Virus record (IMG/VR): IMGVR_UViG_3300045988_145033
Location: 64,001 to 128,000 of that record
Strand: one strand, 5' to 3'
Source of the DNA: a virus
DNA length: 64,000 nucleotides
Shown: in pieces, positions 8,093-50,336 of the stretch
How the letters are laid out: each line of letters begins with the position of its first letter
Position numbering within the stretch: position 1 is the stretch's first letter
The notes under the pieces: generated by a model
What the model was told of the DNA's origin: nothing
Database searches by the model: none
What the model saw: only the letters and a program-made list of their open reading frames with translations
Translations under genes and position numbers: made by a program

Positions 8093-8190
8093 GTTTTACC
8101 TCCCAAGGTATTAAATTTAGACGTCGGAACTCTTAAGCCCTCTTAAGTTTATTCCTTATCTCTACTTTTATTATATATAATTGAAATGAA
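8093..8190 (-). promoter_or_regulatory. Early-type promoter/leader module A (TTTCAATTATATATAATAAAAGTAGAGATAAGGAATAAAC ... hairpin CTTAAG-aggg-CTTAAG ... AAATTTAATACC-RBS)
   Basis: One of four near-identical ~100-nt copies (plus two degenerate ones), each directly upstream of an RBS. Contains a TATAAT-like box. Confidence 0.55.
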
Positions 8191-8203
8191 AAATGCAGAT
8201 ATT

Positions 8204-8713
8204 TTACAACTTTTTCTCAAGAGTTGCTTTAAATGATTTTGTACGTTCCTTTTCCTTATATCCAAGCTTCTCATATAGACTTCTCGCTTCGGTATTAAAG
8301 TCGTACACATCTAGCGATATAGTATTACAACCCTTTTCTTTAGCATAAACCGATGCTACATTCATAAGACGAGTCGCAACACCTTTTCCTCTTGCTTCAG
8401 GGGTTGTCCATAATGCACGAATATAACAAGTTCTCTTTTCTCTATCAGCTCTTATTTCTATAAATCCTACATAGACTGAACTTATAGAAGTCTTAAGAGA
8501 TGCTAGAAATACTGTACTATAATGAGTCTTAAAATCCTCTTTTATTCTATCAAGAAGGTCTCCCTCATCTTCTAAAGGAAAGGATACTCTATCAGCGTGA
8601 TACTTATATATTGCGTGATGAAATTTTAATAGTGTATCGCTATCTTTTATATTTGCTTCCCTTATTACTATTCTCTCAATCATATCATTTTGTGCTTCAC
8701 CGTATAATATCAT
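8204..8713 (-). CDS. GNAT-family N-acetyltransferase (169 aa)
   Basis: Acetyl-CoA-binding motif ALWTTPEARGKGVATRLM and a typical ~170-aa GNAT layout. Local GC is visibly higher than its surroundings. Confidence 0.7.
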   Translation of the reverse strand: MILYGEAQNDMIERIVIREANIKDSDTLLKFHHAIYKYHADRVSFPLEDEGDLLDRIKEDFKTHYSTVFLASLKTSISSVYVGFIEIRADREKRTCYIRALWTTPEARGKGVATRLMNVASVYAKEKGCNTISLDVYDFNTEARSLYEKLGYKEKERTKSFKATLEKKL

Positions 8714-8721
8714 AATATCAC

Positions 8722-9285
8722 CTAAAATATCTTGTCTTTATAAAAAGACATTCTTTCTCTTAATATATCAGCATACTTTGTAGAATATTCTTTTTGCTTA
8801 TCTACAAGCTCTTTTTCTTTTTTGTCCATTTTAAACCAATCATCAGAACGTAAGAAAGTTTCAAGTGCTACAACTCTTACAGATATTTCATTATACTCTT
8901 CTTCCAGTTTTTTAACTTTCTTTTTATACTCTTCATTATCGGCTTTCATTTTAGTTCTATCTTCGCTATCATAAGATAAAGATATTTGCTTCACTTCATT
9001 TATATTAGCTATAAGATTTATCATCTCATCAGCTATTATACCCTTTTGCTCTTCCGTTAGCTTTACATTGTGAACTTCATCTTTTTCACAGTTATTTTCT
9101 ATTACAGATGATATAGCAGATGATAGTTTAGTAGCATTTTCTTCACCTTTTATAAACTTTGCTATTTTAGCATCTTTCTTTAAATCCTTTTTTACATAAT
9201 CACTTACTGCGATTATAAGTCCATTTATCTTTTTCTTTTCAAGTCCTTTATTTATTATAACCTTTAATTCATTTTTATCTGCCAT
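8722..9285 (-). CDS. Hypothetical coiled-coil protein (187 aa)
   Basis: ORF with AAGGAGG RBS. K/E-rich heptad-like sequence. Confidence 0.65.
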   Translation of the reverse strand: MADKNELKVIINKGLEKKKINGLIIAVSDYVKKDLKKDAKIAKFIKGEENATKLSSAISSVIENNCEKDEVHNVKLTEEQKGIIADEMINLIANINEVKQISLSYDSEDRTKMKADNEEYKKKVKKLEEEYNEISVRVVALETFLRSDDWFKMDKKEKELVDKQKEYSTKYADILRERMSFYKDKIF

Positions 9286-9302
9286 TTATTGCCTCCTTTA
9301 TA

Positions 9303-9446
9303 TAATTAAAACTCGTCTATCTTTATTGTATTTTGTATAAGTTTATTTTTACCTTTACTTTCCTTTAAAAGAGTAGAACCTTTTATAAATTTCTTATTTT
9401 CTTTACTCTGTTCTAATAAGCCTAACTTCTTTTTATATTTGCTCAT
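9303..9446 (-). CDS. Small basic protein (~47 aa): MSKYKKKLGLLEQSKENKKF...
   Basis: ATG with AAAAAGGAGACAGT RBS, between a terminator and 8722..9285. Confidence 0.35.
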
Positions 9447-9470
9447 ACTGTCTCCTTTTTCATATTAAAA

Positions 9471-9488
9471 GGCAGGGTTTCCCCTGCC
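9471..9488 (-). terminator. Terminator GGCAGGG-tttc-CCCTGCC
   Basis: Perfect stem, A-tract on one side and T-tract on the other, immediately after the stop of 9495..10154. Confidence 0.65.
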
Positions 9489-9494
9489 ATATAT

Positions 9495-10154
9495 TTATTC
9501 TTCCCATGGATATTCGTCGCCGTCACTACTTTCGTAATCTTCTTGAATTTCCACTTTCTTATTACCATAGTTTGCACTATTCTTTTTAGCTAGTTTTTCT
9601 TGGTGAAAACTCATAACTGTAGAAGTACCATTAAGTATCGCTTCTAACATATTTACAAATGTATTAGTTTCAGATGGTCCACCAAGTCTTACCATATCTT
9701 CCATTCCACCATCACTTGCAAATAGTTTTACTCTATTTGTATCCATAAATGGACATATGATTTTAGAATTTTGTATAACTTGTCCGTCTACTACCGAGTA
9801 TATAGCTGTACCAGTTACATACTTATCTTCTACATTCATTCCAAGAATTCCAAATGCTGTTTCTTTTCCTTGCATTACAAACTCAAATGGAACTTTATCT
9901 ACCATTTTCTTTCTAGCTTGTCTTACCATCATAGTTAAATCTTCAAAATCATTATTAGAAATGAAGTGAGATTTCTCAGGTTTTTTAGCAAAAGGACCTT
10001 CTTCAGTTCTTTTGTAAACTGAGAATAACATTCCTCTTTCAAATAATTTAACACTCATTCTTTTACAATTTTCAATTTCCTTTGTAAAAAATACAAATGA
10101 GATAAGGTGTGTTGATACTAAATCTTCCGGATTTTTCTTTTGTTGTTCTGCCAT
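9495..10154 (-). CDS. Hypothetical protein (219 aa)
   Basis: ORF with RBS ATAGGAGG and a late-type promoter upstream. Confidence 0.7.
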   Translation of the reverse strand: MAEQQKKNPEDLVSTHLISFVFFTKEIENCKRMSVKLFERGMLFSVYKRTEEGPFAKKPEKSHFISNNDFEDLTMMVRQARKKMVDKVPFEFVMQGKETAFGILGMNVEDKYVTGTAIYSVVDGQVIQNSKIICPFMDTNRVKLFASDGGMEDMVRLGGPSETNTFVNMLEAILNGTSTVMSFHQEKLAKKNSANYGNKKVEIQEDYESSDGDEYPWEE

Positions 10155-10181
10155 TTTTAAGCCTCCTATTTAAAATTAATC

Positions 10182-10193
10182 TAAAGTCGTGTT
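10182..10193 (-). promoter_or_regulatory. Late-type promoter AACA-CGACTT-TA-GATTAATTTTAAATAGGAGG
   Basis: Full consensus including the GATTAA extension. Confidence 0.5.
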
Positions 10194-10202
10194 CCTAATT
10201 CT

Positions 10203-12737
10203 TTAGATTTTTTGTATATTTATCTTATATGATTTATTCTTATCATATTCTATATTAACTATTTCTGGTATTACAGATGGGTCATCTGGGTCATAATTTG
10301 CTTCTATGTATTGATAGTCTGAGTTGTAACCATTTATACCTACAAACTCTATCTTTGTAACGTCAACTATATCATCTCTTACCTTTCTTATTAAATCTGA
10401 TACGTGGAAAGTCTCATCATTTATAAAGTCTATCTTAGAGAAGTAATCTCTTATATAATCCTTCACATAGTTCATATCTACTGTAGCATTATAAGCAAGA
10501 GCAACTTTGAAGTTTAAAGATATATTAGTTTTATCAAGTCTTTCATTATCATTTCCGATAATATGGTTTTTAGAAGTACCATACGTGTTTGCAAACTTTA
10601 AAGTTGACACGAAATTAGTTTGAGTTTCAAGCCACTTAGTATGAATATAGTCCATTTGAGCATATACATCATTGTATACAGTATACCCATTATTTTCTAC
10701 ATAATCATATCCAAATAAAGGGATAGATAAAAGTTTTAACTTATTAGCATCTATATCTTCTATTTGTACATATGAGTTATCTGTATACTGTCTTATAAGT
10801 GATATATCATTAAGTGAGAATACATTTATAAGTCCTTTTCCTACTATATTAGGAACACCATAATCACTTGCTTGAACTGTATCATTCTCTTGGTCATCTT
10901 GTACTATTATCTTTATAGATTTAAAGTTTATCTTAGTTGTAACCTCATTTAAAACTCCCGCATTCATAAGTTTTAAATCTATTTTACCATCTCTTATAAA
11001 GTATGCTGTTTCTATCTCAGCTTCATATAAATACATATCATTCTTTTCATTATACGATTTCATGACACAAGGAATATAACCTATATAGTTTGTATCTTCT
11101 GCTTGGAAAGATACATTTATCTTAAGTATTCCTTTGTCATTTATTGAACCGTCTGGAAGCTTTTCGTGAAACTTAACTAAGTCATCTTTATTTTCAGATG
11201 CTAAATTCGTCATAATATTAAAGTGAAGCTTTATATTTCCTTTAGGTTCTCTTGTTATATACACAGCATTTGCCATAAATGAATATTTCGATTTATCATA
11301 GTTATATTCAAACTCACAAACTGAACGTCTATCTATATAAGTTTCATAAGTTTCTACAACTCTTTTGATTCTATTTATAATATACAGTAAAGATGGTGTG
11401 TAATCAAATATGTCATTTGTTTCTTTTGTATCCCTGTGAAATGCTGTATCAGAACCAAGCGGTGCACGGAAATGTGCCATTTCAGGAACTTTATACCAGT
11501 TATCAAGCTTCTCAAGAGTTGATATATCTATAAGACAATTTAAAGTATTAGTAGGAACTAAATACTTGTCATCTACGGTTGTAAGAGGAGCAAATATAGA
11601 ATATACTCTCATCTTCCAATCATCACGAGTTTTTATAACTTTATAATTCTTTTTATTTGCTGAGAAGTGTAAAGATAAATCATAGTCTGTAATTAGTGAG
11701 TTTCTTGTGTGAAGTGAATCTATTATCTTCTTTCTTAAAGATTCTAAATCATCTTCATCAGAACCCGGAGTAGAATACTTCTGAGCTGTATCTGCTGTTA
11801 TATAAAATGGTAGTTCTTCTCCGTCACTATCTTCTACTATTATATCATCACCGATATATTCAAAGTTTGCTTCCTTACCTTTTGTAAGATACATAGAAAG
11901 CTCTATTATGCTATCTCTTACAGGTACGAAATTTCCTCTATATCCGCGATTTGTAAGAGTTATTTTATTTTGGTTCAAATCATAGTATATAGTAGGTTTA
12001 TCAGGAATTGACTTATCATAATACATAGACTTCTGAAGTCTTTTGACTTCATTTGTAAATTCAGACACTCTATAATATGGAGTAAAATCTATAAGCTCAT
12101 CTTTATAAGTTATAGGATATACGTCAGTTGTAGAATCTATATAACGATAAGTTTCTATCTGTCTTTTATATTGATAAAGTATTAAAGATAGTATCATTCT
12201 CTTACCTTGCTTTATAACTTTTATATTTGGATTTACTACTTTAGATATAGGATTATATAAAGCTTCTTTATCATATCTTGCAGTTATAGCCATTTGACCT
12301 TCTGGGTCATATATTTGTATATTTATAGGATAATCAAGAGAATATATAAATTTCCCTATCTTTACTTCTAAAGTGTGAGGTATAGTATATCTGTAAAGTT
12401 TAGGATTTATTCTTTCAGCATTTTTAAGTACATCTTCTATAAATATTGTAAATGTAAATACACGAGAAGAAGGTGTAGCTAGTTGAAAGGATACATCTGC
12501 AACTTTATTCCACTTAAATAAACTATCTTTAAACTCAGCAGTTACTGGAAACATCTCACGAGAAGATATATAAGATGAATATGATACTATATCATATAAT
12601 TCTCCCAAACCTTGAGTTTGATAAAAGGCTGTAGATAAAGCGTGTACTCTATCAGGGGGTAAACCTAAAGTATCTAAAACCACAGCCATAGATTTTAGAA
12701 ACTCCTCTTTTGTCGAGGTAAATTTATCACTTAACAT
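10203..12737 (-). CDS. Hypothetical large protein (844 aa), likely virion structural
   Basis: Co-transcribed directly downstream of 12748..14679 with a 10-nt gap. No recognisable motifs. Confidence 0.7.
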   Translation of the reverse strand: MLSDKFTSTKEEFLKSMAVVLDTLGLPPDRVHALSTAFYQTQGLGELYDIVSYSSYISSREMFPVTAEFKDSLFKWNKVADVSFQLATPSSRVFTFTIFIEDVLKNAERINPKLYRYTIPHTLEVKIGKFIYSLDYPINIQIYDPEGQMAITARYDKEALYNPISKVVNPNIKVIKQGKRMILSLILYQYKRQIETYRYIDSTTDVYPITYKDELIDFTPYYRVSEFTNEVKRLQKSMYYDKSIPDKPTIYYDLNQNKITLTNRGYRGNFVPVRDSIIELSMYLTKGKEANFEYIGDDIIVEDSDGEELPFYITADTAQKYSTPGSDEDDLESLRKKIIDSLHTRNSLITDYDLSLHFSANKKNYKVIKTRDDWKMRVYSIFAPLTTVDDKYLVPTNTLNCLIDISTLEKLDNWYKVPEMAHFRAPLGSDTAFHRDTKETNDIFDYTPSLLYIINRIKRVVETYETYIDRRSVCEFEYNYDKSKYSFMANAVYITREPKGNIKLHFNIMTNLASENKDDLVKFHEKLPDGSINDKGILKINVSFQAEDTNYIGYIPCVMKSYNEKNDMYLYEAEIETAYFIRDGKIDLKLMNAGVLNEVTTKINFKSIKIIVQDDQENDTVQASDYGVPNIVGKGLINVFSLNDISLIRQYTDNSYVQIEDIDANKLKLLSIPLFGYDYVENNGYTVYNDVYAQMDYIHTKWLETQTNFVSTLKFANTYGTSKNHIIGNDNERLDKTNISLNFKVALAYNATVDMNYVKDYIRDYFSKIDFINDETFHVSDLIRKVRDDIVDVTKIEFVGINGYNSDYQYIEANYDPDDPSVIPEIVNIEYDKNKSYKINIQKI

Positions 12738-12747
12738 TTATTCCTCC

Positions 12748-14679
12748 TTATTTCTTAATATAGTCTACGACATCATTATAAGTATTTTGTACAGAATTTG
12801 CGTATCCTGTTACTTTATCTTTAACAGCTCCCGCCATACTTTGTGCTTTAGAAACCGCCGCATCATATGCTCCAGACGCCGTATCCATACCTTTATTCAT
12901 AAGTTTTTCAGCCGTTCCTCTTGGGTCTTTTATAGCATCTAGTATACCACCAGTTACAGTTTTAAAGAATCCGTCTTTCTTAACTACTGTAGCTTTAACT
13001 TTAGGTGCAACTTGAGCTGATGAGAATGGTACAAGTTTATATCTTCCTGTAGCATTATCATATATTACTTCAGCACCATTAGTCCAATAGTATTGTAAGT
13101 CTCTGTCTTCTTTTGGAAGCCACCTGTCATAATATTTTTTAGGCACATATCTTTTTTGCATTTCGTTAAACTCATACAAAGCATTTATATCAAATGGCTT
13201 AAATACAGAAGACGCAAAAGACACAGTTATTTCTCTTATTTCTCTATTTATCATACCTTGATTTGAAAATACCGAAAACGGTATAGTCTTAGGAAAGTTT
13301 CCTACAAGTTTTGCCCAGTATGTAATAGATAAGTCATCTTCTTCTGTACAGAATATAAATATAGGACAGCTATAACTCATTCTATTGGCAACTGTATCAT
13401 CTGGGTGCTGTATTATAAGTCCGTCTTTAACTCTATCTATATATGTAACCCAAGCGTATATAAGCTTAAATGCTTCTGCTTGTCTATCCATAGCAAAAGT
13501 CAAGTTTATTGGTATATTTATCATAGATGAACCGTACGATATCCCATACTCTTGAGCTGAACCATATCTATTCGCAGGAGAGTTAGAAACGTCAAGAGAA
13601 GCATCTTGGAATGATATTCCAACTATTCTATTTTGAAGAGATGTCATCCAAGGAGTAGCACCGTCTATTCTTCCATTAAGTTGTAAGAATAAATCGTAAT
13701 CTCTTAGAATGAACTCAGCAAGGTTATAGTCATTTCTTACACTTTCTGCAAGTTTATTTGTATCTTCCTCTTGCAAGTTACAAGTAGGCTTTCCTATAAA
13801 AATATGAGTTCTTGTATGAGCAAGAGTATTATCTATAAGTGTAACACCTAGCCTATTTACGAAGTTACGTTCCAAATCTTTACCTTTTGATATATTGCCA
13901 GTCATACCATAAGAGTTTTTAATAGTTTCTGCAAGAGATGCAAAGGTATCATCTGAGAATATATCAAATCCGTCATATGAAGGATATGAAGCCGCAGGAG
14001 AATATCCAGAAGCATTCCAGAATCTTTGGAAGGCGTCTATTTTAGGTTTTCCTGTTGTCTTACCATTCATAGCTCCAGCTTCTCCCCAGCCACTTAGTGA
14101 AGCACCACGAAGAGCAGCCATAAGTTTATCCTTATCGTCTTTATTTCCTGAAAGTCTATCCATATCTTGAGCATCAGGTCCTGTATATATTTCATGATAA
14201 GGGTCTCTATTTTTAAGAAGTTCTGATTTCATAGAGCCTATAAGTCCACCAAATGTACTATTAAGTGCCATACCTAGTGGATTTCCTAAGAAATTATTTA
14301 TTTTACCTAATATTCCTCTTTGCAGTTTTGACTCTATCTTTCCTATGGTTGAGTTAATTTTATTATTTATTCTTTCTTCGACTCCACCTACTACACTATT
14401 TATTCTACCTTGAACTAAACCTTCTATATTTGAACTTCCGGTTCTTATGGCATTATCTACAGCACTACCTATACTACCTATGGCGTTATTAACAAAGTTA
14501 CCCGGTATCTCTTGAGCATTTTGCCATACTTCATTTAATCTATCAGTACCGAAGTTTGATTTAAGCTTATTTGCGTAAGTATCATATGTCTCTTTTGCTG
14601 TCTCTTGGTTCTTTTTAAACTGTGCCGTTGCGACGTCAGATAAACTTCCACCAGCTGATTTTTGGTTATCATCTGCCAT
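12748..14679 (-). CDS. Putative virion protein (643 aa) with Gly-rich helical N-terminal and C-terminal segments
   Basis: Its promoter and 5' UTR are nearly identical to those of 53808..55640 (GTGAAAAACAGCCCTTTAGTT-AAAAATTATAA). It carries Gly/Ser/Asn-rich repeats. Confidence 0.7.
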   Translation of the reverse strand: MADDNQKSAGGSLSDVATAQFKKNQETAKETYDTYANKLKSNFGTDRLNEVWQNAQEIPGNFVNNAIGSIGSAVDNAIRTGSSNIEGLVQGRINSVVGGVEERINNKINSTIGKIESKLQRGILGKINNFLGNPLGMALNSTFGGLIGSMKSELLKNRDPYHEIYTGPDAQDMDRLSGNKDDKDKLMAALRGASLSGWGEAGAMNGKTTGKPKIDAFQRFWNASGYSPAASYPSYDGFDIFSDDTFASLAETIKNSYGMTGNISKGKDLERNFVNRLGVTLIDNTLAHTRTHIFIGKPTCNLQEEDTNKLAESVRNDYNLAEFILRDYDLFLQLNGRIDGATPWMTSLQNRIVGISFQDASLDVSNSPANRYGSAQEYGISYGSSMINIPINLTFAMDRQAEAFKLIYAWVTYIDRVKDGLIIQHPDDTVANRMSYSCPIFIFCTEEDDLSITYWAKLVGNFPKTIPFSVFSNQGMINREIREITVSFASSVFKPFDINALYEFNEMQKRYVPKKYYDRWLPKEDRDLQYYWTNGAEVIYDNATGRYKLVPFSSAQVAPKVKATVVKKDGFFKTVTGGILDAIKDPRGTAEKLMNKGMDTASGAYDAAVSKAQSMAGAVKDKVTGYANSVQNTYNDVVDYIKK

Positions 14680-14712
14680 TGTAAAACCTCCTTTTAATTA
14701 TAATTTTTAAAC

Positions 14713-14724
14713 TAAAGGGCTGTT
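14713..14724 (-). promoter_or_regulatory. Late-type promoter AACA-GCCCTT-TA-GTTTAAAAATTATAATTAAAAGGAGG
   Basis: A 21-nt core identical to the promoter at ~53760 on the opposite strand. Confidence 0.55.
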
Positions 14725-14753
14725 TTTCACACTTTTGCGACAAAAAAAAAAAT

Positions 14754-14772
14754 GGTGAGGATAAACCCCACC
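14754..14772 (-). terminator. Terminator GGTGAGG-ataaa-CCCCACC (conserved module)
   Basis: A11 tract on one side. On the minus transcript the stem is GGUGGGG/CCUCACC with a G-U wobble pair, followed by U11. Confidence 0.65.
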
Positions 14773-14779
14773 ACTTATA

Positions 14780-17027: not shown

Positions 17028-17100
17028 TTTTGAACCTCCTTTAAATTTTAAATTTTAGCATCTAGTTATTCCTATTGCTAGGTTTATAATATATAAGAAA
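17028..17100 (-). promoter_or_regulatory. Degenerate early-type module E (TTATATATTATAAACCTAGCAATAGGAATAAC...AAATTTAAAATTTAAAGGAGG), lacking the hairpin
   Basis: Shares TATATAT-TATAA, GGAATAAC and AAATTTAAAAT blocks with modules A-D. Confidence 0.35.
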
Positions 17101-26762: not shown

Positions 26763-26830
26763 TTTGATTCCTCCTTAAAATTTTTTATTTTTACCTCTCG
26801 GTCTACATATATAATATATAGTATAAAAAA
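26763..26830 (-). promoter_or_regulatory. Degenerate early-type module F (TATACTATATATTATATATGTAGACCGAGAGGTAAAAATAAAAAATTTTAAGGAGG)
   Basis: TATATAT-TATATATGTAGA-GAGG blocks align with modules A-D. No hairpin. Confidence 0.35.
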
Positions 26831-29689: not shown

Positions 29690-29717
29690 AAATTTGGTGC
29701 TACGCACCCAAAATTTT
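29690..29717. promoter_or_regulatory. Long imperfect palindrome AAATTTGGTGC-tac-GCACCCAAAATTT in the divergent promoter region
   Basis: The inverted repeat lies between the nuclease/helicase operon and the plus-strand operon. Its half-site AAATT(T/C)G also appears in the palindrome at ~32952. Confidence 0.35.
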
Positions 29718-29752
29718 GTTAATGAAATTTTGACTAATTAGGAGGTATAAAA

Positions 29753-37745: not shown

Positions 37746-37779
37746 ATATTAAAACCTCCTTGTTTTACTTAAAATATTA

Positions 37780-37791
37780 TATTTTGGTGTT
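37780..37791 (-). promoter_or_regulatory. Late-type promoter AACA-CCAAAA-TA-TAATATTTTAAG upstream of 36273..37745
   Basis: Consensus match between the terminator module and the RBS. Confidence 0.45.
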
Positions 37792-37830
37792 CGTAACAGA
37801 TGTATCTAGGAACATAGAAAAAAAAATAAA

Positions 37831-37848
37831 GGTGAGGCGAACCCCACC
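37831..37848 (-). terminator. Terminator GGTGAGG-cgaa-CCCCACC within the conserved module TAGGAACATAGAAAAAAAAATAAAGGTGAGG..CCCCACCAATATTCTTTTATT
   Basis: Same module as at ~47584 and ~49980. The minus-strand RNA stem includes a G-U wobble pair and is followed by a U-tract. Confidence 0.65.
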
Positions 37849-37857
37849 AATATTCTT

Positions 37858-38292
37858 TTATTTCTTTCTTCTGTAAAGAGGTTGGTTTGTTCCTTCCTCT
37901 CTAAGTTGGTCCTTACTTCTTATGTATTCATAGAACCCTTTATGCTTGAAGTCAGCCTTTTTAGTAACTGACCCATCAGGGTTTTGAGTTTCTGTTACAA
38001 TTCTTTCTGAATAAGCATAGAAGCAAGGTATCCATGAGTTAAGGTCCAAACAAATCACATTTACTGCTGGTGGGAATCCAGCTACGTGTATTGCTGTACA
38101 GAAGTTTTGTTCCATGTAGTCAATAACATCATTGCAGACATATAAGTAATTGTCTGGTGTCATTTGACTCCAAGCTTTTTTCAATTCTTCACTCAATTCC
38201 ACAACTTGGTATCCCTTTTCAGCAAGTTCTTGGATTTGATTAAGACCTAATACGTGATTTGAGCAGTTTAACAAGTTTTCTAATTTTTTCAT
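37858..38292 (-). CDS. Hypothetical early protein (144 aa)
   Basis: Immediately downstream of early module B, with a TAGGAGG RBS. Confidence 0.7.
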   Translation of the reverse strand: MKKLENLLNCSNHVLGLNQIQELAEKGYQVVELSEELKKAWSQMTPDNYLYVCNDVIDYMEQNFCTAIHVAGFPPAVNVICLDLNSWIPCFYAYSERIVTETQNPDGSVTKKADFKHKGFYEYIRSKDQLREEGTNQPLYRRKK

Positions 38293-38396
38293 TTTTGTAC
38301 CTCCTAGTACGGTTATTTTAAATTAAGACTATTTGGAACTCCTGAGCCTTCTCAGGTTTATTCCTTTTGTCTACGTTTATTATATATAATTGAAAT
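38293..38396 (-). promoter_or_regulatory. Early-type promoter/leader module B (hairpin CCTGAG-aagg-CTCAGG)
   Basis: Near-identical to modules A, C and D. The stem sequence differs, but base pairing is preserved. Confidence 0.55.
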
Positions 38397-38410: not shown

Positions 38411-38670
38411 TTATCGTTTATTCCAATCTTCGTCAGGGTCGAAACTATTTTCTTTCTCCCATTTAACTTGAGCTTCTCTTGCATTACGAACAGCATCATT
38501 TCCATTATTTCTTGTAATAGATGCACCTTCTGTTACAAAGAAAAAACTCATATTATATTTCTTACAAAGTGCTTCCACTTCCTTACATAACTTTCTCGCC
38601 TTTTCCAACTTCTTTTCATCAATAACCTCTTTTTGAGACTCTGCTATCTTTCTTATTAAGCTTGTATTCA
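38411..38670 (-). CDS. Small hypothetical protein (~86 aa)
   Basis: Track ORF 38411..38818 is over-extended. ATG at ~38670 follows AAAGGAGGTTTTAAT. The upstream part would overlap the divergent promoter and gene 38755. Confidence 0.55.
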
Positions 38671-38715
38671 TATTAAAACCTCCTTTATTTAATCGTTTGC
38701 TACAAAACCACCAGA

Positions 38716-38727
38716 AACACCCGAATA
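38716..38727 (+). promoter_or_regulatory. Late-type promoter AACA-CCCGAA-TA-TATTAATTTTAAAAGGAGG
   Basis: Consensus match ~25 nt upstream of the RBS of 38755..40212. Confidence 0.5.
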
Positions 38728-38754
38728 TATTAATTTTAAAAGGAGGACTCGAAT

Positions 38755-40883: not shown

Positions 40884-40897
40884 AAACAGTTGAAAAA

Positions 40898-40909
40898 ACA
40901 GCAGTTTAG
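40898..40909 (+). promoter_or_regulatory. Late-type promoter AACA-GCAGTT-TA-GATTAAAATTAAAATTG upstream of the MCP candidate
   Basis: Full consensus. A ~40-nt leader runs to the TAGGAGGTATAAAAT RBS. Confidence 0.55.
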
Positions 40910-42704: not shown

Positions 42705-42756
42705 TAAGATAAAGGCGTTCCACTGCCATAAATGAAGGAGCTATATAATACATGAG

Positions 42757-42776
42757 TGCTACCCGAAAGGGTAGCA
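42757..42776 (+). terminator. Terminator TGCTACCC-gaaa-GGGTAGCA with a GNRA loop and T-rich tail
   Basis: Perfect 8-bp stem 50 nt after the MCP-candidate stop, followed by TTTCATTTACTTTTTG. Confidence 0.7.
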
Positions 42777-42795
42777 TTTCATTTACTTTTTGAAA

Positions 42796-42807
42796 AACAG
42801 CGACGTA
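42796..42807 (+). promoter_or_regulatory. Late-type promoter AACA-GCGACG-TA
   Basis: Consensus core upstream of 42839..43204. Confidence 0.45.
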
Positions 42808-42838
42808 AGAGAGAAAGAATCTAAAGGAGGAACTAAAA

Positions 42839-43826: not shown

Positions 43827-43870
43827 TAATTTATATCTATGTATTTATTTAGGGAAGGAGTGTGTTCGAT

Positions 43871-43987
43871 ATGGATATATTGCATTGTGACATAATAGAT
43901 TTATTTAATCTGCTCATGTATGCTATTGCAACTTCATGCTATATCACAACAGTGGGAGTCCTTGATTTAATCTTAGAACCTAAATGA
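43871..43987 (+). CDS. Small hydrophobic peptide (38 aa): MDILHCDIIDLFNLLMYAIATSCYITTVGVLDLILEPK
   Basis: ATG preceded by GGAAGGAG. Followed by a perfect terminator hairpin. Confidence 0.3.
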   Translation: MDILHCDIIDLFNLLMYAIATSCYITTVGVLDLILEPK

Positions 43988-43998
43988 TAAAATTATGT

Positions 43999-44023
43999 AA
44001 ACGGTGGGATTTTCCCACCGTTT
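43999..44023 (+). terminator. Terminator AAACGGTGGGA-tttt-TCCCACCGTTT
   Basis: Perfect 11-bp stem with a T-rich tail. Confidence 0.7.
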
Positions 44024-44080
44024 ATTTGTGTAACGAACAATTTTTTGATATAAATTAATATAATTCAGGAGGTTTAAAAT

Positions 44081-44872
44081 ATGGATAAAAGACCAAAGAT
44101 TATAACTCTTTATGGAGAGTCTGAAATATCAGCAACTCCTAGAAAGAGAATAGTTGATAGAAAATATGTAGGTAATCAAATAGTATGGGTACAAGAATGT
44201 CTTACATTTGGAAGAACTACAAGAAATGGAAATGATTTCTTAGAAGAAAACTTTAGAGAAGCAGTAGAAGACCCTTTCGTTAATGACAGATTAAAAGGTA
44301 ATAGATTCTTCTCAGAACTTGACCACCCTAGCAAAAGCGATACAGAAAGATTCGTGCAAGTATACTTACAAAATATAGCATATAGAAATAAGCACTTCTT
44401 CTTTGAAAATGGAACTATGTATTCTGAATGTGAAACTATAGATACTCCATCTGGAAAGATAGTAAGAACTCTTATAGAATCTGATGCTGAAATAGCTGTA
44501 TCTTTTAGAGGATATGGAGTGCCTAAACTTGACGGAAATGGAGAAACTATAAAGCTTGTAGCATTTGACGTTGTATATCAACCAAGTGACCCAACTTCAC
44601 TTTCAAGAGAAGAATCATTTAGAAATCAAATGTATGCAGAAGGATATAGTGCATCTGAGTTCGCAAGAATAGCAATGAGGGATAATTTAGTTGCTTATGA
44701 TACTATTCCTAAAAATTCAGGACTTTATGCTGAAGCTTCATTTGAAGGTATAAGACCTAAGCAAGTTATAAAATACGGAGATGACGTTTTAGGTATTACT
44801 TATGAAACTAAGGAAGAAATAGAAAGAAATGCTAAAGCTCAAGGATTTAGAAACTTTATCATAAATCTATAA
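44081..44872 (+). CDS. Hypothetical head-module protein (263 aa). Candidate prohead protease or scaffold by position only.
   Basis: ORF with CAGGAGG RBS. An AACA-ATTTTT-TG motif lies upstream. Confidence 0.6.
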   Translation: MDKRPKIITLYGESEISATPRKRIVDRKYVGNQIVWVQECLTFGRTTRNGNDFLEENFREAVEDPFVNDRLKGNRFFSELDHPSKSDTERFVQVYLQNIAYRNKHFFFENGTMYSECETIDTPSGKIVRTLIESDAEIAVSFRGYGVPKLDGNGETIKLVAFDVVYQPSDPTSLSREESFRNQMYAEGYSASEFARIAMRDNLVAYDTIPKNSGLYAEASFEGIRPKQVIKYGDDVLGITYETKEEIERNAKAQGFRNFIINL

Positions 44873-44886
44873 GGAGCTCTGATAAT

Positions 44887-45702
44887 ATGAACCCTAATAG
44901 ACTTATAAAAGATGTAAAGGAAAAATTAGGAATAGGAACTTTTATAGAAACTAAATATACAGATTATGATTTATATGATAGGATATTATCATCTGCAAGA
45001 ATGTGGTTCTCAAGAATATACGCTTATGAAATATTTATACCGTCTATGAAATTTGATAATTCTTTAAGATATAATGGTAGAGTGTATTCATATAAGATAC
45101 CAGAATATATCACAAAAGAGCTAGCTTATGAAAAAACTGGAGTTATAGATGTAAGACATTTGCGTCAAGCATTTTCAACTGTAGAAGATACAGGTATGAT
45201 GTATCTTCCTACAGCAGATACTATGTATCCGCCACCAGCTGACGGTGTAGGTTCTACCTATATGGGAGCTATGAGTGCAACTCCGTCATACTATATGCAA
45301 GGACTTGCTCCATATATAGGAATGGCTCAAACTCAAGCATCTTATGAAATGTATAGAAAACCTATAAAGGCTAAGTTCCGTTCTCCTAATATAATAGAAT
45401 TCGATTTAAGAGGAATGTCACCTGTTGGAACTAATTGGGAGCTACGTTTAAAAGTAGGACACCCTATGAGTTTATTTAGTGTAGATGAGCCACACTATCT
45501 TATATTTCAAAACTTAGCTGTATTTGATATACAGGAGTTCTTATGGAATAGTGAACTTAAAGGACTTGATGGACTTACTAACGGTTATGATAATATATCT
45601 TTAAAGATAGATGATTGGGCTAATGCCTCTGAGCGTAGAGCTGAGTATATAGAAAAGCTTGAAGCTGATGTAGTTCTAATGGAAGGAATTACGACTTATT
45701 AA
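44887..45702 (+). CDS. Hypothetical protein (271 aa)
   Basis: Begins 12 nt after the previous stop. Confidence 0.65.
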   Translation: MNPNRLIKDVKEKLGIGTFIETKYTDYDLYDRILSSARMWFSRIYAYEIFIPSMKFDNSLRYNGRVYSYKIPEYITKELAYEKTGVIDVRHLRQAFSTVEDTGMMYLPTADTMYPPPADGVGSTYMGAMSATPSYYMQGLAPYIGMAQTQASYEMYRKPIKAKFRSPNIIEFDLRGMSPVGTNWELRLKVGHPMSLFSVDEPHYLIFQNLAVFDIQEFLWNSELKGLDGLTNGYDNISLKIDDWANASERRAEYIEKLEADVVLMEGITTY

Positions 45703-45779
45703 AATGTGACAACACTAGATTGTGATAAGTTAGGTATATAACATCTGAAGCTAGAAAAACTGGTACAAGAATATTAGTC

Positions 45780-45960
45780 GACAATATCTTGGATAGAGTG
45801 TACACAATTAGTTCTAACGTAAGTCCGGTAAACCGCATGGAAGCGTTCAGCAATAGGGCGGAAGTGTTACGAGTGGTTTAGAAGCCTTCGGTAGTTTGAT
45901 GCCTTTATATGCAAACCTTATCACCCGGATAGTCTTTTATACTTTTAGAATATAGATAAA
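45780..45960. ncRNA. Candidate structured non-coding RNA (GC-rich island in a convergent intergenic region). Strand unknown.
   Basis: About 50 % GC against ~30 % background. No ORF longer than 14 codons. Contains the C(UUCG)G tetraloop motif AGCCTTCGGT and CGGTaaaCCG. Fills ~260 bp of otherwise unexplained sequence. Confidence 0.3.
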
Positions 45961-45970
45961 AAAAAATAAA

Positions 45971-45989
45971 GGGAGGCGAAAGCCTCTCC
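45971..45989. terminator. Bidirectional terminator GGGAGGC-gaaa-GCCTCTCC
   Basis: A9 tract upstream, GNRA loop, T-rich tail, abutting the stop of 45996..47039. Confidence 0.6.
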
Positions 45990-45995
45990 TTATTT

Positions 45996-47039
45996 TTATT
46001 CTGTCATTTCTCTTAGCTCTTTATAAAGCTTTTCATTAAATAGCATTTCTTCTCTATCAAGTTCCATAACATAGCAAGTTATCTCAGTTCTTTCAAGAGT
46101 ACGAGATGTCCAGAATTCTACATATCCACTATTACGTGGGTAGAATTCTTTTGGAACATTTACCATATCTATAAAGTAGACTCTCTTATTTGCTATTTTA
46201 AGAGTCTTATACTTTTCAGGTATTTCATTCCAATCATCAGAAGGAAGCTCAAGAACTTGTACTCCAGAAAGTCCAACTTGAGTTGCAAACTCAGTATTAA
46301 TATGATTACCCTTATGATACGCTAAGATAAATGGTGTAGTTGTATCTACAGTATTTTTCTTAGAAGACGCATAATAGTTATTTAATTGGTCTTCCGTCAT
46401 ATACTTAGATGCTACTTTAAATCCGAATTCGTATATAAGATAACCTATACAAGCATCAGCTATCTTATTATCGTTATCGAATTTAATATGCTTTAAAACG
46501 TTAGATGAGTAATTACCCACCTTTAAAAGTTTCCAAAGCATAGGAAGATTTAGGAAGTTTGCTGAAATTTCGGGAATTACACCTTTATCAAGCTTGTACA
46601 TTATATCATCATAAGGTGCAAGTCCTAACGCATATACCACATTTCTACAGTGATATATACGGATTTTCTTTTCAGAAGCTTCTACAATATCGGTAAATCT
46701 TGTGTGAGCATCATTATCCCACTCACCACTATCGTAGAAATCTATCATCTCAAATTCAGCCGTTTGAGACGTCTTATCAAACTCGCCAGTGTATCTTAGA
46801 AGTTTGTGAGATATATTTCCACCACTTCTATGAGATACGCATACAACATCACCTTTATTAAGTATAAATAAACCGTGATTGTCATTTGATAAAGTTCCAC
46901 CGGTACGGATAAAAATACAATCTTTCTTATGACCATATTTATCTCCGATAAGTTCAGTATGTCCTGAGTTAGTCATACCTCCCCCTTTTTCCCAGAATGC
47001 TGGGTAACCCTTTTTAGTAAATGCTATTTGTAATTTCAT
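45996..47039 (-). CDS. Hypothetical protein (347 aa)
   Basis: ORF with AAAGGAGG RBS. Confidence 0.7.
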   Translation of the reverse strand: MKLQIAFTKKGYPAFWEKGGGMTNSGHTELIGDKYGHKKDCIFIRTGGTLSNDNHGLFILNKGDVVCVSHRSGGNISHKLLRYTGEFDKTSQTAEFEMIDFYDSGEWDNDAHTRFTDIVEASEKKIRIYHCRNVVYALGLAPYDDIMYKLDKGVIPEISANFLNLPMLWKLLKVGNYSSNVLKHIKFDNDNKIADACIGYLIYEFGFKVASKYMTEDQLNNYYASSKKNTVDTTTPFILAYHKGNHINTEFATQVGLSGVQVLELPSDDWNEIPEKYKTLKIANKRVYFIDMVNVPKEFYPRNSGYVEFWTSRTLERTEITCYVMELDREEMLFNEKLYKELREMTE

Positions 47040-47156
47040 AATATCATTCCTCCTTTTAATTTTAAATTAAGACATTATTGCCTTTTAATATTATTTATTA
47101 CTATAGTTATTATATATAATCAAATGCAAAAATTCGTAGGAGCATAAAAAAAATAA

Positions 47157-47178
47157 GGAGAGGTTTGTGAACCCCTCC
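47157..47178 (-). terminator. Terminator GGAGAGG-tttgtgaa-CCCCTCC
   Basis: An A-C mismatch on the plus strand becomes a G-U pair in the minus transcript. Lies after the stop of 47187..47438. Confidence 0.55.
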
Positions 47179-47186
47179 AAATTATT

Positions 47187-47438
47187 TTAGATTTTAGTCA
47201 CAGTAATAAATGCAGAGAATATGACAGTATTGTTACCGCTGTCATAAGTTGATGAATATTGTATTTGCGGAATACCATTATATCCATCATTCTTGAATTT
47301 ACAAACCATTTCCAAAACTAAATCTGTTAAAGGAGTTGCCCCCTTTTCAGAAGATGTCCAAACGTGTCCCATACAAACATCTCCTCTCATTTCTCTTTCC
47401 AATCTGTCTCCAATAGTTTCATTAAATAATGTAGTCAT
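47187..47438 (-). CDS. Hypothetical early protein (83 aa)
   Basis: Directly downstream of early module C. Confidence 0.65.
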   Translation of the reverse strand: MTTLFNETIGDRLEREMRGDVCMGHVWTSSEKGATPLTDLVLEMVCKFKNDGYNGIPQIQYSSTYDSGNNTVIFSAFITVTKI

Positions 47439-47536
47439 TTTAAACCTCCTCAGGTATTTTAAATTTTGGCATTAAGAACTCTCAACCCTTGTTAAGTTTA
47501 TTCTCTTGCTCTTACTTTTATTATATATAATTGAAA
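47439..47536 (-). promoter_or_regulatory. Early-type promoter/leader module C (hairpin CTTAAC-aagg-GTTGAG with a G-U pair)
   Basis: Near-identical to A, B and D. Confidence 0.55.
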
Positions 47537-47583
47537 ATAAAAATTACGTAACTTCTTCTAGGAACATAGAAAAAAAAAATAAA

Positions 47584-47602
47584 GGTGAGGATAAACCCCA
47601 CC
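47584..47602 (-). terminator. Terminator GGTGAGG-ataaa-CCCCACC (conserved module)
   Basis: Same module as at ~37831 and ~49980. Confidence 0.65.
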
Positions 47603-47612
47603 AATATCTTTA

Positions 47613-47987
47613 TTAATTTTTATAAGCTGTATAGTCTCTTATAATATCAAGACAAGTTTCTAAGTTGTCAGATAGTTCAAATCCTGCTGGACCTCTATCT
47701 TTCATATCAAGCATAAGAGCAACTTCTTCTCTTATTTGTTCACGATTAAGCCATTCTCTCATCCTTGTAGGACTATAGCTTTTACCTTTCTTAAATTCAG
47801 TTAATATAAACTCATTATTCTTTATTTCAAATGATACTATAAACTCATTTCTTGGAGATAGTTCTTTATCTTTAAGCTCGTGTCCTTTATCATCAAATAT
47901 TACGGTTTCAAATAATACCTCTATAATCTTATGATTCTTAGTCCATTTCTTATTAGTTTTTGTTAGTCTTATCATTCTTGAAACCAT
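47613..47987 (-). CDS. Hypothetical early protein (124 aa)
   Basis: Last gene of the six-gene early operon. Confidence 0.65.
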   Translation of the reverse strand: MVSRMIRLTKTNKKWTKNHKIIEVLFETVIFDDKGHELKDKELSPRNEFIVSFEIKNNEFILTEFKKGKSYSPTRMREWLNREQIREEVALMLDMKDRGPAGFELSDNLETCLDIIRDYTAYKN

Positions 47988-48319
47988 TATTCATCACACC
48001 CTTCTGTAAAGATTTCTTGCATTTTATACGTATTAGTATCTCTATCAAAGTGAGCTAAATCAAGTCTCACCTTATTATTAATACAAGCATTTATAACAGC
48101 TGCTGTTGCTTGAGTAAGTCCAGTTACATACAAAACTAACTTATCCTCTTTTAAGTTAAAGCTGTCCCCTTCAGCACCTACTATTTCAATAACTCTTCTA
48201 TTAGCAAGTCTGAATAAATCTCCAAATGCTAGAGGATTTGCTATATCCCCTTCGAATACATATTCACTTACTGGTAATTCATGTCTCCCTTTTATTAAAC
48301 CTACTTTTAATTCTCTCAT
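47987..48319 (-). CDS. Hypothetical early protein (110 aa), possibly a Rossmann-like nucleotide-binding fold
   Basis: Beta-strand KVGLIKGRHELPV followed by the Gly-rich helix start LYVTGLTQATAAVINA. Its stop overlaps the next start by 1 nt. Confidence 0.6.
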   Translation of the reverse strand: MRELKVGLIKGRHELPVSEYVFEGDIANPLAFGDLFRLANRRVIEIVGAEGDSFNLKEDKLVLYVTGLTQATAAVINACINNKVRLDLAHFDRDTNTYKMQEIFTEGCDE

Positions 48320-48339
48320 CTTTATTCCTCCTTAAAATT

Positions 48340-48702
48340 TTAATAATCGCATATAGTATATATAACTTCCATCATAGTAGCAAGCACATAATAGTAATAC
48401 TTATATTCTTCATCATTGTCTTTAGCTTTATTATATTTATCAACAAGCTCCATATATTCCTTATAAGTTGGTATTTCCTTTTTATCAAAGTATGATGAGC
48501 ATAAATCATCGCATACTTGTAACTTAAATAATTCAGGTACATCTTTTGCAAATAGTTTATCCCATTCTTCATCAACTATAATTGATATATCTGGTAGGTT
48601 AAGTATAGCATAATCATCGACTGTTATTTTGTGAGTTTCTTCCCACGCCTTAACTAAGGCTGCTACATTTAGTATTTCTTTTTCTCCTATTCTTTTTAGC
48701 AT
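48340..48702 (-). CDS. Hypothetical early protein (120 aa)
   Basis: Operon member with AAGGAGG RBS. Confidence 0.65.
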   Translation of the reverse strand: MLKRIGEKEILNVAALVKAWEETHKITVDDYAILNLPDISIIVDEEWDKLFAKDVPELFKLQVCDDLCSSYFDKKEIPTYKEYMELVDKYNKAKDNDEEYKYYYYVLATMMEVIYTICDY

Positions 48703-49091
48703 TCTACTACCTCCAATTTTGTAACTTTATTAAGTTGCTTAGTCACACCAGTTAAAGCAGTTTCTATGTCGTGTTGTATCATGTACATTGTCTTATCGTA
48801 TCTTGAAGTTAGAACTAAATCTTCATGTGATAATACAAACGCTTCAAATATAAATATAGTGTCGGCTTGTTTTAAGATATTTTTAACTATAGCTGTACTT
48901 ACATCATTTTTGATATCTATGGATACTATCTCAAACTCTCCACAGAATATACTACACTTTAATCCAAATAATGGCTTTCTTACTTCTTCCTTATATTTAG
49001 ATACTGTAACCAAATTAGCTACAATACCTATAGTTCTTGTGTATAATAATTTATTTTCTTCAGTTTTGCTAAATTCTATATATTTTCTCAT
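48696..49091 (-). CDS. Hypothetical early protein (131 aa)
   Basis: Overlaps the downstream gene by 7 nt. Confidence 0.65.
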   Translation of the reverse strand: MRKYIEFSKTEENKLLYTRTIGIVANLVTVSKYKEEVRKPLFGLKCSIFCGEFEIVSIDIKNDVSTAIVKNILKQADTIFIFEAFVLSHEDLVLTSRYDKTMYMIQHDIETALTGVTKQLNKVTKLEVVEC

Positions 49092-49104
49092 AGTTATCTC
49101 CTTT

Positions 49105-49512
49105 TTATTTTGATAGAAAATCTAATATAAATTTTGGTACATTTTGATATCTAGTCAAGCATTCTACTTTAATATCATCTCTTGTGAAGTGTATAGCATA
49201 AGATACCATATAAGGTTTTGTGTATACATTATGTATATCATTATAAGTATCTTCGTAGATAGTTATAACTTTACCTTCAGGTATACTTTTCTTTATCTTA
49301 TCATACGCCACAGAATACACTCCTTGAATGATGTTTACAGCGTCTGTGATGCCCAAATTTACCTTTGAAAGATGTAAAGCGTGCATTTCATTGTCTTTAC
49401 GAAATACCACTTCAGATACCCTTACATCAGCTGATATGACACCTAGATAAAATGAATCTTTATCATCAGTGTGAATATGTCTTATACATTCAGTGTCTAT
49501 AAGTTTAAGCAT
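49105..49512 (-). CDS. Hypothetical early protein (135 aa)
   Basis: Operon member. Confidence 0.65.
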   Translation of the reverse strand: MLKLIDTECIRHIHTDDKDSFYLGVISADVRVSEVVFRKDNEMHALHLSKVNLGITDAVNIIQGVYSVAYDKIKKSIPEGKVITIYEDTYNDIHNVYTKPYMVSYAIHFTRDDIKVECLTRYQNVPKFILDFLSK

Positions 49513-49867
49513 TTATATCACCACCTTCTATGTCATACTCAAGCATATCATGACCAGCATAATCAAGAGCTATAACTTTTAAATCAAGAAGCTTAGGTAA
49601 GTTTATTGGTTTATCTAAGTCATCTTCATATTCATTTAAGAACTCTTCAAAATCCCAAAGAGATACCTTGTTATTATAGTCAGGATATAGAATTGAACCG
49701 TACACTTTAGAGTACATTACAACCGCCATATTCCCACCTTTAAACAGTGATACCCAATCCTTCCAAAGAGCATCATGTATTCTCATATTATGCTCCTTTG
49801 ATGAATGTCCATTCTTATAGTTCTCTATAAGACTCCTTGCCAGTGTTTTCCATTTTTGTAAATCCAT
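49505..49867 (-). CDS. Hypothetical early protein (120 aa)
   Basis: First gene of the operon, with AAAGGAGG RBS. Confidence 0.65.
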   Translation of the reverse strand: MDLQKWKTLARSLIENYKNGHSSKEHNMRIHDALWKDWVSLFKGGNMAVVMYSKVYGSILYPDYNNKVSLWDFEEFLNEYEDDLDKPINLPKLLDLKVIALDYAGHDMLEYDIEGGDINA

Positions 49868-49979
49868 AGAATTTACCTCCTTTAAATTTTTATTTGACTT
49901 TGGCTTGATTGCCTTGTCTTATGTATATAATATATAGCTTATTATAAGAATGCTGTGGAACGTAGAAAAAAAAAATAAA

Positions 49980-49998
49980 GGTGAGGATAAACCCCACC
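49980..49998 (-). terminator. Terminator GGTGAGG-ataaa-CCCCACC (conserved module GGAACGTAGAAAAAAAAAATAAAGGTGAGG...)
   Basis: Third copy of the module, after the stop of 50008..50241. Confidence 0.65.
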
Positions 49999-50007
49999 AA
50001 TATTCTT

Positions 50008-50241
50008 TTATTCATTTAAAGTTAATCTGCGTTTTAGAAGATATATATAATCTTCTAAGATTTTAATATCTGTAGAGAAGTCTTCTCCAAGATATTTATT
50101 TTTTATTGGTGCGTCTGGATTATGTATCCAGTTTGAAGCCTTCATTTGTTCTGAGACTTCTCCTTTCTTTAGTGCAAACAGTCTTCCTTCGGCTGTTTTA
50201 ATTTTGTTTTGGATTACTTCGATTTCTTTTTTATTTAACAT
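50008..50241 (-). CDS. Hypothetical early protein (77 aa)
   Basis: Directly downstream of early module D. Confidence 0.65.
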   Translation of the reverse strand: MLNKKEIEVIQNKIKTAEGRLFALKKGEVSEQMKASNWIHNPDAPIKNKYLGEDFSTDIKILEDYIYLLKRRLTLNE

Positions 50242-50336
50242 ATTATCTACCTCCTCAGGTATTAAATTTAGACGTCGGAATTCTCAACCCTTGTTAAGTT
50301 TATTCCTTATCTCTACATTTATTATATATAATTGAA
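50242..50336 (-). promoter_or_regulatory. Early-type promoter/leader module D (hairpin CTTAAC-aagg-GTTGAG). The most similar copy to module A.
   Basis: GGTATTAAATTTAGACGTCGGAA is shared verbatim with module A. Confidence 0.55.

Follow-up and report, generated by a model that had tools for sequence, protein, structure and literature searches.

Nearly identical modules of about 100 nt recur on the minus strand of a 64,000-nt viral sequence, positions 64,001 to 128,000 of the IMG/VR record IMGVR_UViG_3300045988_145033 (this whole stretch is the window, and coordinates without a locus handle are counted within it). What do these modules do, and is the hairpin that they contain maintained as RNA? 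We find that each one joins a conserved AT-rich promoter to a 5' leader of three nested helices, and that selection acts on the pairing of this leader in the sense strand. The window is related to the Fusobacterium nucleatum phages JD-Fnp1, 4, 6 and 7, whose genomes measure 175-180 kb. Its identity to JD-Fnp7 is about 91% across most of its length, and positions 47300-50500 are 82-86% identical to JD-Fnp1, 4, 6 and 7. Annotation is lacking for more than 80% of the genes in the 180-kb JD-Fnp phages.

The four modules on the minus strand, A to D, are real. They are 98-106 nt long, begin with the invariant 20-mer TTTCAATTATATATAATAAA and end in GGAGG followed by an ATG start codon. The 20-mer occurs four times in the window compared with a mean of 0.27 in shuffled sequence, and none of 100 shuffles reached four. 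A sequence-only reading of the window had described the string GTAGA-N-A-WAAGGAATAAAC in these modules, which fails in copy C, where GTAAGAGCAAGAGAATAAAC is found instead. When IMG/VR was scanned for exact matches to the 20-mer, 67 loci were obtained; together with the window they contain 79 occurrences in 70 distinct sequences. BLAST with the modules gave seven to eight matches in each JD-Fnp relative. A search for the 20-mer in genomes covering 185,579 bacterial species gave 35 isolated matches in unrelated taxa, none of them in a record titled Fusobacterium and none with the leader.

Single-sequence folds of all copies showed that the leader stem-loop is built of nested helices, P1, P2 and P3. 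The 6-bp hairpin of the sequence-only reading is P3, the apical helix only. Its three versions were given exactly (CUUAAG-AGGG-CUUAAG, CCUGAG-AAGG-CUCAGG and CUUAAC-AAGG-GUUGAG, the last with one G·U pair), and the ARGG loop is present in all four window copies. Thus the pairing stands, but as part of a three-helix structure and not as a single helix. Exactly three nested helices were found in 60 of 64 distinct leaders from related phage contigs. Stems come in many versions among the distinct leaders (13 of P1, 14 of P2 and 23 of P3), with P1 reading AGAC(A)/(U)GUCU and similar, and P2 reading GGAAU/(A/G)UUCC, GAGU/(A/G)CUC, GAC/GUC and others. Between P2 and P3 lies an internal loop that in 54 of 60 leaders has AAA on its 5' side and a single A on its 3' side. 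The apical loop (A-N-GG) ends in GG in 54 of 58, the base after GG being variable. Since these unpaired bases are invariant while the stems vary, an additional sequence-specific partner is suggested.

The first paired base lies 5-7 nt past the 20-mer; with module position 24 taken as the predicted start, it is 2-4 nt away from the start. An A/U-rich spacer, AAAUUUAA, separates the stem-loop from the Shine-Dalgarno sequence. No Rfam match was found in the whole window at gathering thresholds, and at E up to 10 none in 47400-50400 covered the leader stem-loop. This structured leader is an undescribed RNA motif. Other identities were considered and dropped. The stem-loop is without a U-tract and was rejected as an intrinsic terminator or attenuator. 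The AAA bulge is followed by C-U and preceded on the other strand by A-G, lacking the GA/AG signature of a kink-turn. For a pseudoknot between the loop and a downstream ACC, inspection by eye of the four window copies left only the GG:CC pairs consistent.

Is the pairing itself selected? In a model-guided alignment of the 64 distinct rows, 84.4% of cells were paired versus 75.4% in shuffles. Double compensatory changes were seen in 13 of the 17 pairs, and all six P3 pairs covary. None of 500 shuffles reached these values, and control helices slid along the alignment paired in 23-47% of cells. With 57 distinct leaders aligned by plain MAFFT, 83% of cells were paired versus 74.6% in shuffles, and double changes occurred in 11 of 17 pairs; again no shuffle of 500 reached the observed values, and slid controls paired at 25-45%. 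P1 and P2 are based on the single-sequence folds, the pair counts and the model-guided alignment. At orthologous slots, defined by the same flanking genes, the stems differ between phages and are all fully paired. For example, the slot of module D reads CCC/GGG in P1, GAGU/GCUC in P2 and UUCAAG/CUUGAA in P3 in JD-Fnp1, all different from the window stems listed in the table, while the ribosome-binding region is identical. G·U pairs made up 49 of 881 pairs, and in 52 of 58 leaders the sense strand gave a stabler fold than the antisense strand. Because G·U pairs favour the sense fold, the structure is selected in the coding-sense RNA. Selection on RNA pairing, as the sequence-only reading had argued from the window copies, is therefore strongly supported.

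We next asked how far leader and promoter travel together. A covariance model of the leader alone, run with filters off, found exactly four full copies in the window (51-67 bits) instead of the six that had been claimed. Over 684 kb of loci it gave 84 matches, and the complete JD-Fnp7 genome holds seven full copies, all on a single strand. A box of the same class directly precedes the leader in every match whose upstream 20 nt were read, a set of 81 full-length matches, five variant-promoter copies and the inspected truncated copies of about 32 bits. Hairpin and promoter class thus always go together, at a fixed distance. The two supposed degenerate copies, at about 17028-17100 and 26763-26830, do have promoters of this class but are not copies of the hairpin: 17047-17097 scored 10.7 bits (E 8.7), and the unfiltered model had no match at 26763-26830. 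Two further promoters of the class had been overlooked (table). One of them is followed at 47061-47090 by a truncated leader, of which a P1-like hairpin and UAAUUUAAA are left (20.6 bits, E 0.018). Four IMG/VR contigs of 147-208 kb (L025:7073-7157, L049:9005-9095(-), L058:2216-2306 and L064) carry the identical 20-mer with an unrelated leader, which starts GGTGTATCA and continues into a GCCCTC-loop-GAGGGC hairpin adjoining the Shine-Dalgarno sequence. Since the same 20-mer is paired with different leaders, promoter and leader are separable units, and the 20-mer is conserved more widely than the three-helix leader.

Which polymerase reads the 20-mer? The -10 hexamer of the modules is a perfect TATAAT, and a T-tract, often the tail of an intrinsic terminator, leads into the 20-mer. 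No conserved -35 element was found upstream of the modules, including at 16-18 bp, and a sigma-70 two-hexamer scan did not call them. In all giant phages that encode their own polymerases, the early promoters share the feature of a conserved, AT-rich stretch about 10 nt long in the -10 region (PMC7598289). In phiKZ these consist of an extended -10 and an upstream T-rich stretch (PMC8244752), and in AR9 the consensus is AAATATATATTAT-(6N)-G for early and AACA-(6N)-TA/G for late promoters (PMC5312081). The early promoters of AR9, phiKZ, phiR1-37 and 201phi2-1 are like the modules in being AT-rich near -10, T-rich upstream and without a -35, and in standing in front of small genes of no assigned function. 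The module core, TATATA(A/T)TA(A/T)A, differs little from the AR9 early consensus. Unlike the giant phages, the present group has a Fusobacterium host, genomes of only 175-180 kb, a conserved block of 20 nt and a covarying leader fused to it. As a promoter, the 20-mer adds a new member to a class already known.

The phage group also encodes at least five open reading frames (ORFs) similar to the beta or beta' subunits of giant-phage multisubunit RNA polymerases. One beta-like ORF lies in the window. In JD-Fnp7, tblastn found one beta paralogue only; profile searches then added four further polymerase-like ORFs, of 1484, 627, 642 and 482 amino acids. In front of the 627-residue ORF stands a TATATATTATA box of its own with a short 5' hairpin after it. 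For another of these ORFs the nearest such signal is a module 1.8 kb upstream, with terminators in the interval. Relaxed PHROGs searches of the window detected no further subunits. Pfam searches of 20 large ORFs gave almost nothing, the polymerase being visible with PHROGs only, and phmmer against PDB chains gave nothing for the beta-like ORF or for a 1048-residue ORF. The published description of JD-Fnp1-5 mentions no polymerase and no promoter, and our literature search found no paper tying Fusobacterium phages to a virion polymerase.

As in AR9, the several beta/beta'-like ORFs are accompanied by a second promoter class, AACA-N6-T(A/G), that fronts large genes. These boxes, often in the longer form GAAAAACAGCnnTTTAG, match the AR9 late consensus. 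On both strands together they precede about 15 large genes, at 20-35 nt in front of the ribosome-binding site, and in some cases they form divergent pairs. The AACA late promoters of AR9 are recognised only in uracil-containing DNA. The strict pattern AACANNNNNTTAG is not enriched in number (seven versus five expected), and all seven matches are intergenic, on the coding strand and just upstream of a ribosome-binding site. AACA-class leaders are short (15-32 nt), A/U-rich and unstructured; in leaders of the AT-rich class a hairpin begins a few nt from the predicted start. The proposal that the modules answer to a polymerase specificity distinct from that of the AACA promoters is supported by the polymerase ORFs, the AR9-like boxes and the lack of a -35. 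By analogy with AR9 and phiKZ, the 20-mer is most likely an early promoter read by a virion-packaged phage polymerase. An unexplained motif has been mentioned in the early 5' untranslated regions of AR9, without structure or function (PMC5312081), and is the nearest precedent for the leader.

Our preferred reading, to which we assign a probability of roughly 55%, is that the module is an early-gene cassette of a phage with its own multisubunit polymerases, consisting of a virion-polymerase promoter and a structured 5' leader. An injected, virion-packaged polymerase would read the AT-rich 20-mer and, in the manner of AR9 and phiKZ, begin transcription 6-7 nt past TATATATAAT, at the conserved TAG. 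After 2-4 unpaired nt, the first 45-50 nt or so of the RNA would fold into the three-helix stem-loop, which would act in cis on early mRNAs. Placed at the very 5' end, the hairpin could shield it from end-dependent RNases and could keep access to the ribosome-binding site independent of the gene plugged in, and a trans-acting protein might also recognise the hairpin through AAA/A and the loop GG. The probable role of the leader is thus either protection of the 5' end or recognition by a partner. The functions listed by the sequence-only reading (translational operator, processing site or stability determinant) are still the correct shortlist.

Several observations weigh against this interpretation. 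The start site, the early timing and the polymerase assignment rest on the analogy with AR9 and phiKZ, and a host polymerase, too, would find a perfect -10 element in TATAAT. Only short, dissimilar hairpins are present at about half of the promoters of this class, so the three-helix form is not required for early expression. A plain stabiliser needs no invariant loop or bulge bases, hence protection of the 5' end may not be the main function. On the structural side, single-sequence folding z-scores were modest (-1.7 to -3.7), and RNAalifold on the plain MAFFT alignment recovered P3 only, because indels misalign P1 and P2. The counts of paired cells overstate the number of independent events, as paralogous copies probably recombine.

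Among the alternatives, the stem-loop could be mainly an operator, where a phage-encoded or virion-delivered RNA-binding protein would recognise AAA/A and A-N-GG and coordinately repress, activate or time translation or decay in a subset of early mRNAs. T4 RegA, the MS2 coat protein and the eukaryotic iron-responsive element are analogues of such control. An operator would account for the near-invariant AAA/A and GG in stems of 13-23 versions, and for the presence of the leader at about half of the early-class promoters, as expected of a sub-regulon. It would also fit the enrichment of a small hairpin at the Shine-Dalgarno sequence, where 68% of module-linked genes have a stem of at least 4 bp versus 25% of other GGAGG genes in the loci. 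However, no candidate binding protein was found, the loop invariance may in part be a legacy of gene conversion and of a recent common ancestor, and the Fusobacteria are without homologues of CsrA, Hfq and ProQ (PMC11039985). We consider an operator possible, if only tentatively. A CsrA-type GGA-hairpin operator was rejected, given a host without CsrA (PMC11039985) and a variable base after the loop GG. Somewhat more doubtful is the idea that the leader is an RNA tag on transcripts of the injected polymerase, read through AAA/A and GG by a virion or early protein or by the phage polymerase. Were it true, the tagged subset of early mRNAs would gain privileged translation, protection or a timed shut-off, and the phages would possess a virus-specific way of tagging mRNA in a host devoid of CsrA, Hfq and ProQ.

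The promoter might instead be read by the host sigma-70 polymerase, as are T4-type early promoters, with the role of the leader unchanged. The perfect TATAAT, the UP-like A/T-rich T-tract upstream and the use of host polymerase for the early genes of most phages all agree with this, but a -35 at 16-18 bp is missing and the invariance extends over all 20 bp, even to positions that play no part in sigma-70 recognition. In addition, the 20-mer has no match in any record titled Fusobacterium, the phage group has at least five multisubunit polymerase homologues, and the core is closely like the AR9 early promoter (PMC5312081), so we regard host recognition as unlikely. Acting on the transcribing polymerase, the leader could also be an antitermination element like nut or put, which would let the enzyme pass the many terminators between early units. 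Lambda nut and HK022 put are likewise repeated structured RNAs directly downstream of early promoters, put acts in cis, and here too the element always directly follows the early promoter and strong terminators stand within one gene downstream. Yet the leader resembles neither boxA/boxB nor the two-hairpin put fold in sequence or structure, and in 47400-50400 it has no Rfam match at E up to 10. Moreover, one-gene units that are closed by a terminator and restarted by a promoter suggest that termination is used and not bypassed, which makes antitermination very unlikely.

An irregular hairpin of 14-17 bp with a long interrupted helix and an asymmetric internal loop could also serve as a processing site for RNase III or another endonuclease, where cleavage would take off the 5' end or split read-through transcripts. 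T7 early mRNA has hairpins of this kind ahead of several genes. This leader is shorter than typical RNase III substrates and stands at the start of the primary transcript instead of between cistrons, and the upstream terminators would make read-through substrates rare; the chance of a processing site seems slimmer still. Finally, the modules could have no RNA function and be DNA repeats maintained by recombination as crossover points for cassettes, their palindromes forming cruciforms at most. Genes have been replaced or inserted exactly at module edges, and the modules are highly similar over about 100 bp, as described for the promoter-early stem-loop (PeSL) elements (PMC2839356). Nevertheless, diverged stems stay paired, including G·U pairs that are A·C mismatches on the other strand, and gene conversion homogenises copies but does not create compensatory pairs. 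We judge this the most far-fetched of the explanations.

The preferred cassette reading agrees with the surroundings of the modules. Strong intrinsic terminators bracket one-gene units, with eight in 45900-50500 compared with 1.1 expected, and terminators adjoin many modules. Homology to the relatives breaks firmly at two modules only, at A through an insertion and at D through a replacement. The window and L051 have the 47-residue ORF behind module A, but JD-Fnp7, L042 and L002 lack it at this slot, and its breakpoint relative to JD-Fnp7 falls exactly at the start codon of the module. Between module D and its terminator, the slot has no alignment in JD-Fnp1, 6 and 7, and JD-Fnp1 holds an unrelated ORF there; this break, too, coincides with the start codon of the module. 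The break near B was seen with megablast only. A break at all four modules, suggested by megablast, was rejected because blastn showed that the gene after C had merely diverged. The modules are best read as cassettes of terminator, early promoter and 5' leader that front small orphan genes, some of them swapped between relatives. The terminators themselves include a repeated family of the form (AATAT)TGGTGGGGTTTATCCTCACC plus a T-run, to which 47584-47602(-) and 49980-49998(-) belong, with similar copies within 37746-37857(-) and 14680-14779(-). Behind several copies comes a conserved CTA(C/T)GTTCC motif, and in many IMG/VR relatives a related motif, TTCTACTATCCT, follows terminators.

Such cassettes recall the PeSL of T4-type phages, for which modular shuffling has been described (PMC2839356, PMC4122927). 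Both are composite regulatory repeats of about 100 bp, with a Shine-Dalgarno sequence and the start codon at their end. Each unites the roles of terminator and promoter, borders small orphan genes and marks insertion or replacement breakpoints between close relatives. In contrast to the modules, PeSL have a sigma-70 consensus promoter that includes a -35. Their stem-loop is a terminator upstream of or within the promoter, whereas the transcribed stem-loop of the modules is placed downstream of the predicted start and lacks a U-tract, the terminator being a separate element. As RNA, the leader resembles the E. coli ompA, T7 gene 10 and B. subtilis leaders, which are 5'-terminal stabiliser hairpins. 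It would share with these and with the SP82 stabilisers a hairpin near the 5' end, an A/U-rich spacer and a strong ribosome-binding site. Unlike it, the known stabilisers are single simple hairpins without loops conserved across a family, and the start site of the modules is a predicted one.

For this phage group, the results provide a transcription map with AR9/phiKZ-like polymerases, an early consensus and a late AACA consensus. F. nucleatum phages are under development against this tumour-associated bacterium. The leader is a new covarying 5' motif whose more than 60 natural variants form a ready-made mutational series for learning how a structured 5' end affects transcripts of a virion-delivered polymerase. 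The cassettes mark sites where orphan genes are swapped, which is useful for studies of genome evolution and for phage engineering, the latter because the module is a natural, portable part for early expression.

Table. Features of the modules and of related elements in the window and in JD-Fnp7 (L numbers are locus handles; mini-hairpin, hairpin at the Shine-Dalgarno sequence; aa, amino acids)
Feature	Position	Strand	Remarks
20-mer promoter, module A	8167-8186	-	exact match; predicted start about 8162-8163; start codon (ATG) at 8091
Leader, module A	8119-8161	-	P1 AGAU/GUCU, P2 GGAAU/GUUCC, P3 CUUAAG/CUUAAG, loop AGGG; AAA/A internal loop; covariance-model match 8110-8166, 67.1 bits
Mini-hairpin, module A	8097-8110	-	UACCU-UGGG-AGGUA; last two G of the Shine-Dalgarno sequence in the stem
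47-aa ORF, predicted membrane protein	7948-8091	-	downstream of module A; insertion relative to JD-Fnp7
20-mer promoter, module B	38376-38395	-	exact match; start codon at 38292
Leader, module B	38326-38372	-	P1 AGAC/GUCU, P2 GGAAU/GUUCC, P3 CCUGAG/CUCAGG, loop AAGG; 63.1 bits
Mini-hairpin, module B	38297-38310	-	GUACU-AGGA-GGUAC
144-aa ORF	37858-38292	-	downstream of module B; family kept at this slot in relatives
20-mer promoter, module C	47517-47536	-	exact match; start codon at 47438
Leader, module C	47469-47509	-	P1 GCA/UGC, P2 GAGAAU/GUUCUU, P3 CUUAAC/GUUGAG, loop AAGG; 50.9 bits
Mini-hairpin, module C	47444-47455	-
83-aa ORF	47187-47438	-	downstream of module C; terminator next
Intrinsic terminator	47584-47602	-	GGUGGGGUUUAUCCUCACC plus U-run; just upstream of module C
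Terminator	47157-47178	-	closes the one-gene unit of module C
20-mer promoter, module D	50318-50337	-	exact match; start codon at 50241
Leader, module D	50270-50312	-	P1 AGAU/GUCU, P2 GGAAU/AUUCC, P3 CUUAAC/GUUGAG, loop AAGG; 63.9 bits
Mini-hairpin, module D	50248-50261	-
77-aa ORF	50008-50241	-	in the slot between module D and the terminator
Terminator	49980-49998	-	identical to 47584-47602; closes the one-gene unit of module D
Same-class promoter	17028-17100	-	box TATATATTATA at 17085-17095; different short 5' hairpin
Same-class promoter	26763-26830	-	box TATATATTATA at 26810-26820; only a 3-bp ACC/GGU hairpin
Same-class promoter	47061-47120	-	ATTATATATAATAAC; promoter about 47101-47120; missed by the sequence-only reading
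Same-class promoter	49890-49936	-	box TATATATTATA at 49926-49936; two-helix 5' hairpin GAC/GUC and GGC/GCC; missed earlier
Beta-like ORF of giant-phage multisubunit RNA polymerase, 930 aa	21693-24485	+	phrog_2986 (1e-51), phrog_2962 (3e-47), also phrog_3015
AACA boxes, strict	3569-3581, 10181-10193, 14712-14724, 53733-53745, 58796-58808	-
AACA boxes, strict	40897-40909, 53759-53771	+
AACA boxes, looser	6022-6093, 29708-29752, 37746-37857, 38527-38754, 42705-42838, 43988-44080, 60110-60270		about eight boxes
Polymerase-like ORFs of JD-Fnp7	L068:3467-7921, L068:26458-28341, L070:33065-34993, L068:1-1449	-, +, +, +

The small ORFs downstream of the modules had no family matches. The 47-residue ORF has one predicted transmembrane helix (MKKKEKKIYNKERERELDTIYGTIISLGAFAIAIIACAIASMKGAWF) and overlaps, with its stop codon, the beginning of the gene that follows. 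No tRNA genes were found in the whole window. JD-Fnp7 has one very long ORF of 2979 amino acids (L070:5882-14821(+)), which is without a PHROG match.

The mini-hairpins at the Shine-Dalgarno sequence are 4-5 bp long, and their arms covary in turn, reading ACCU..AGGU, GACU..GGUC and GUAC..GUAC.

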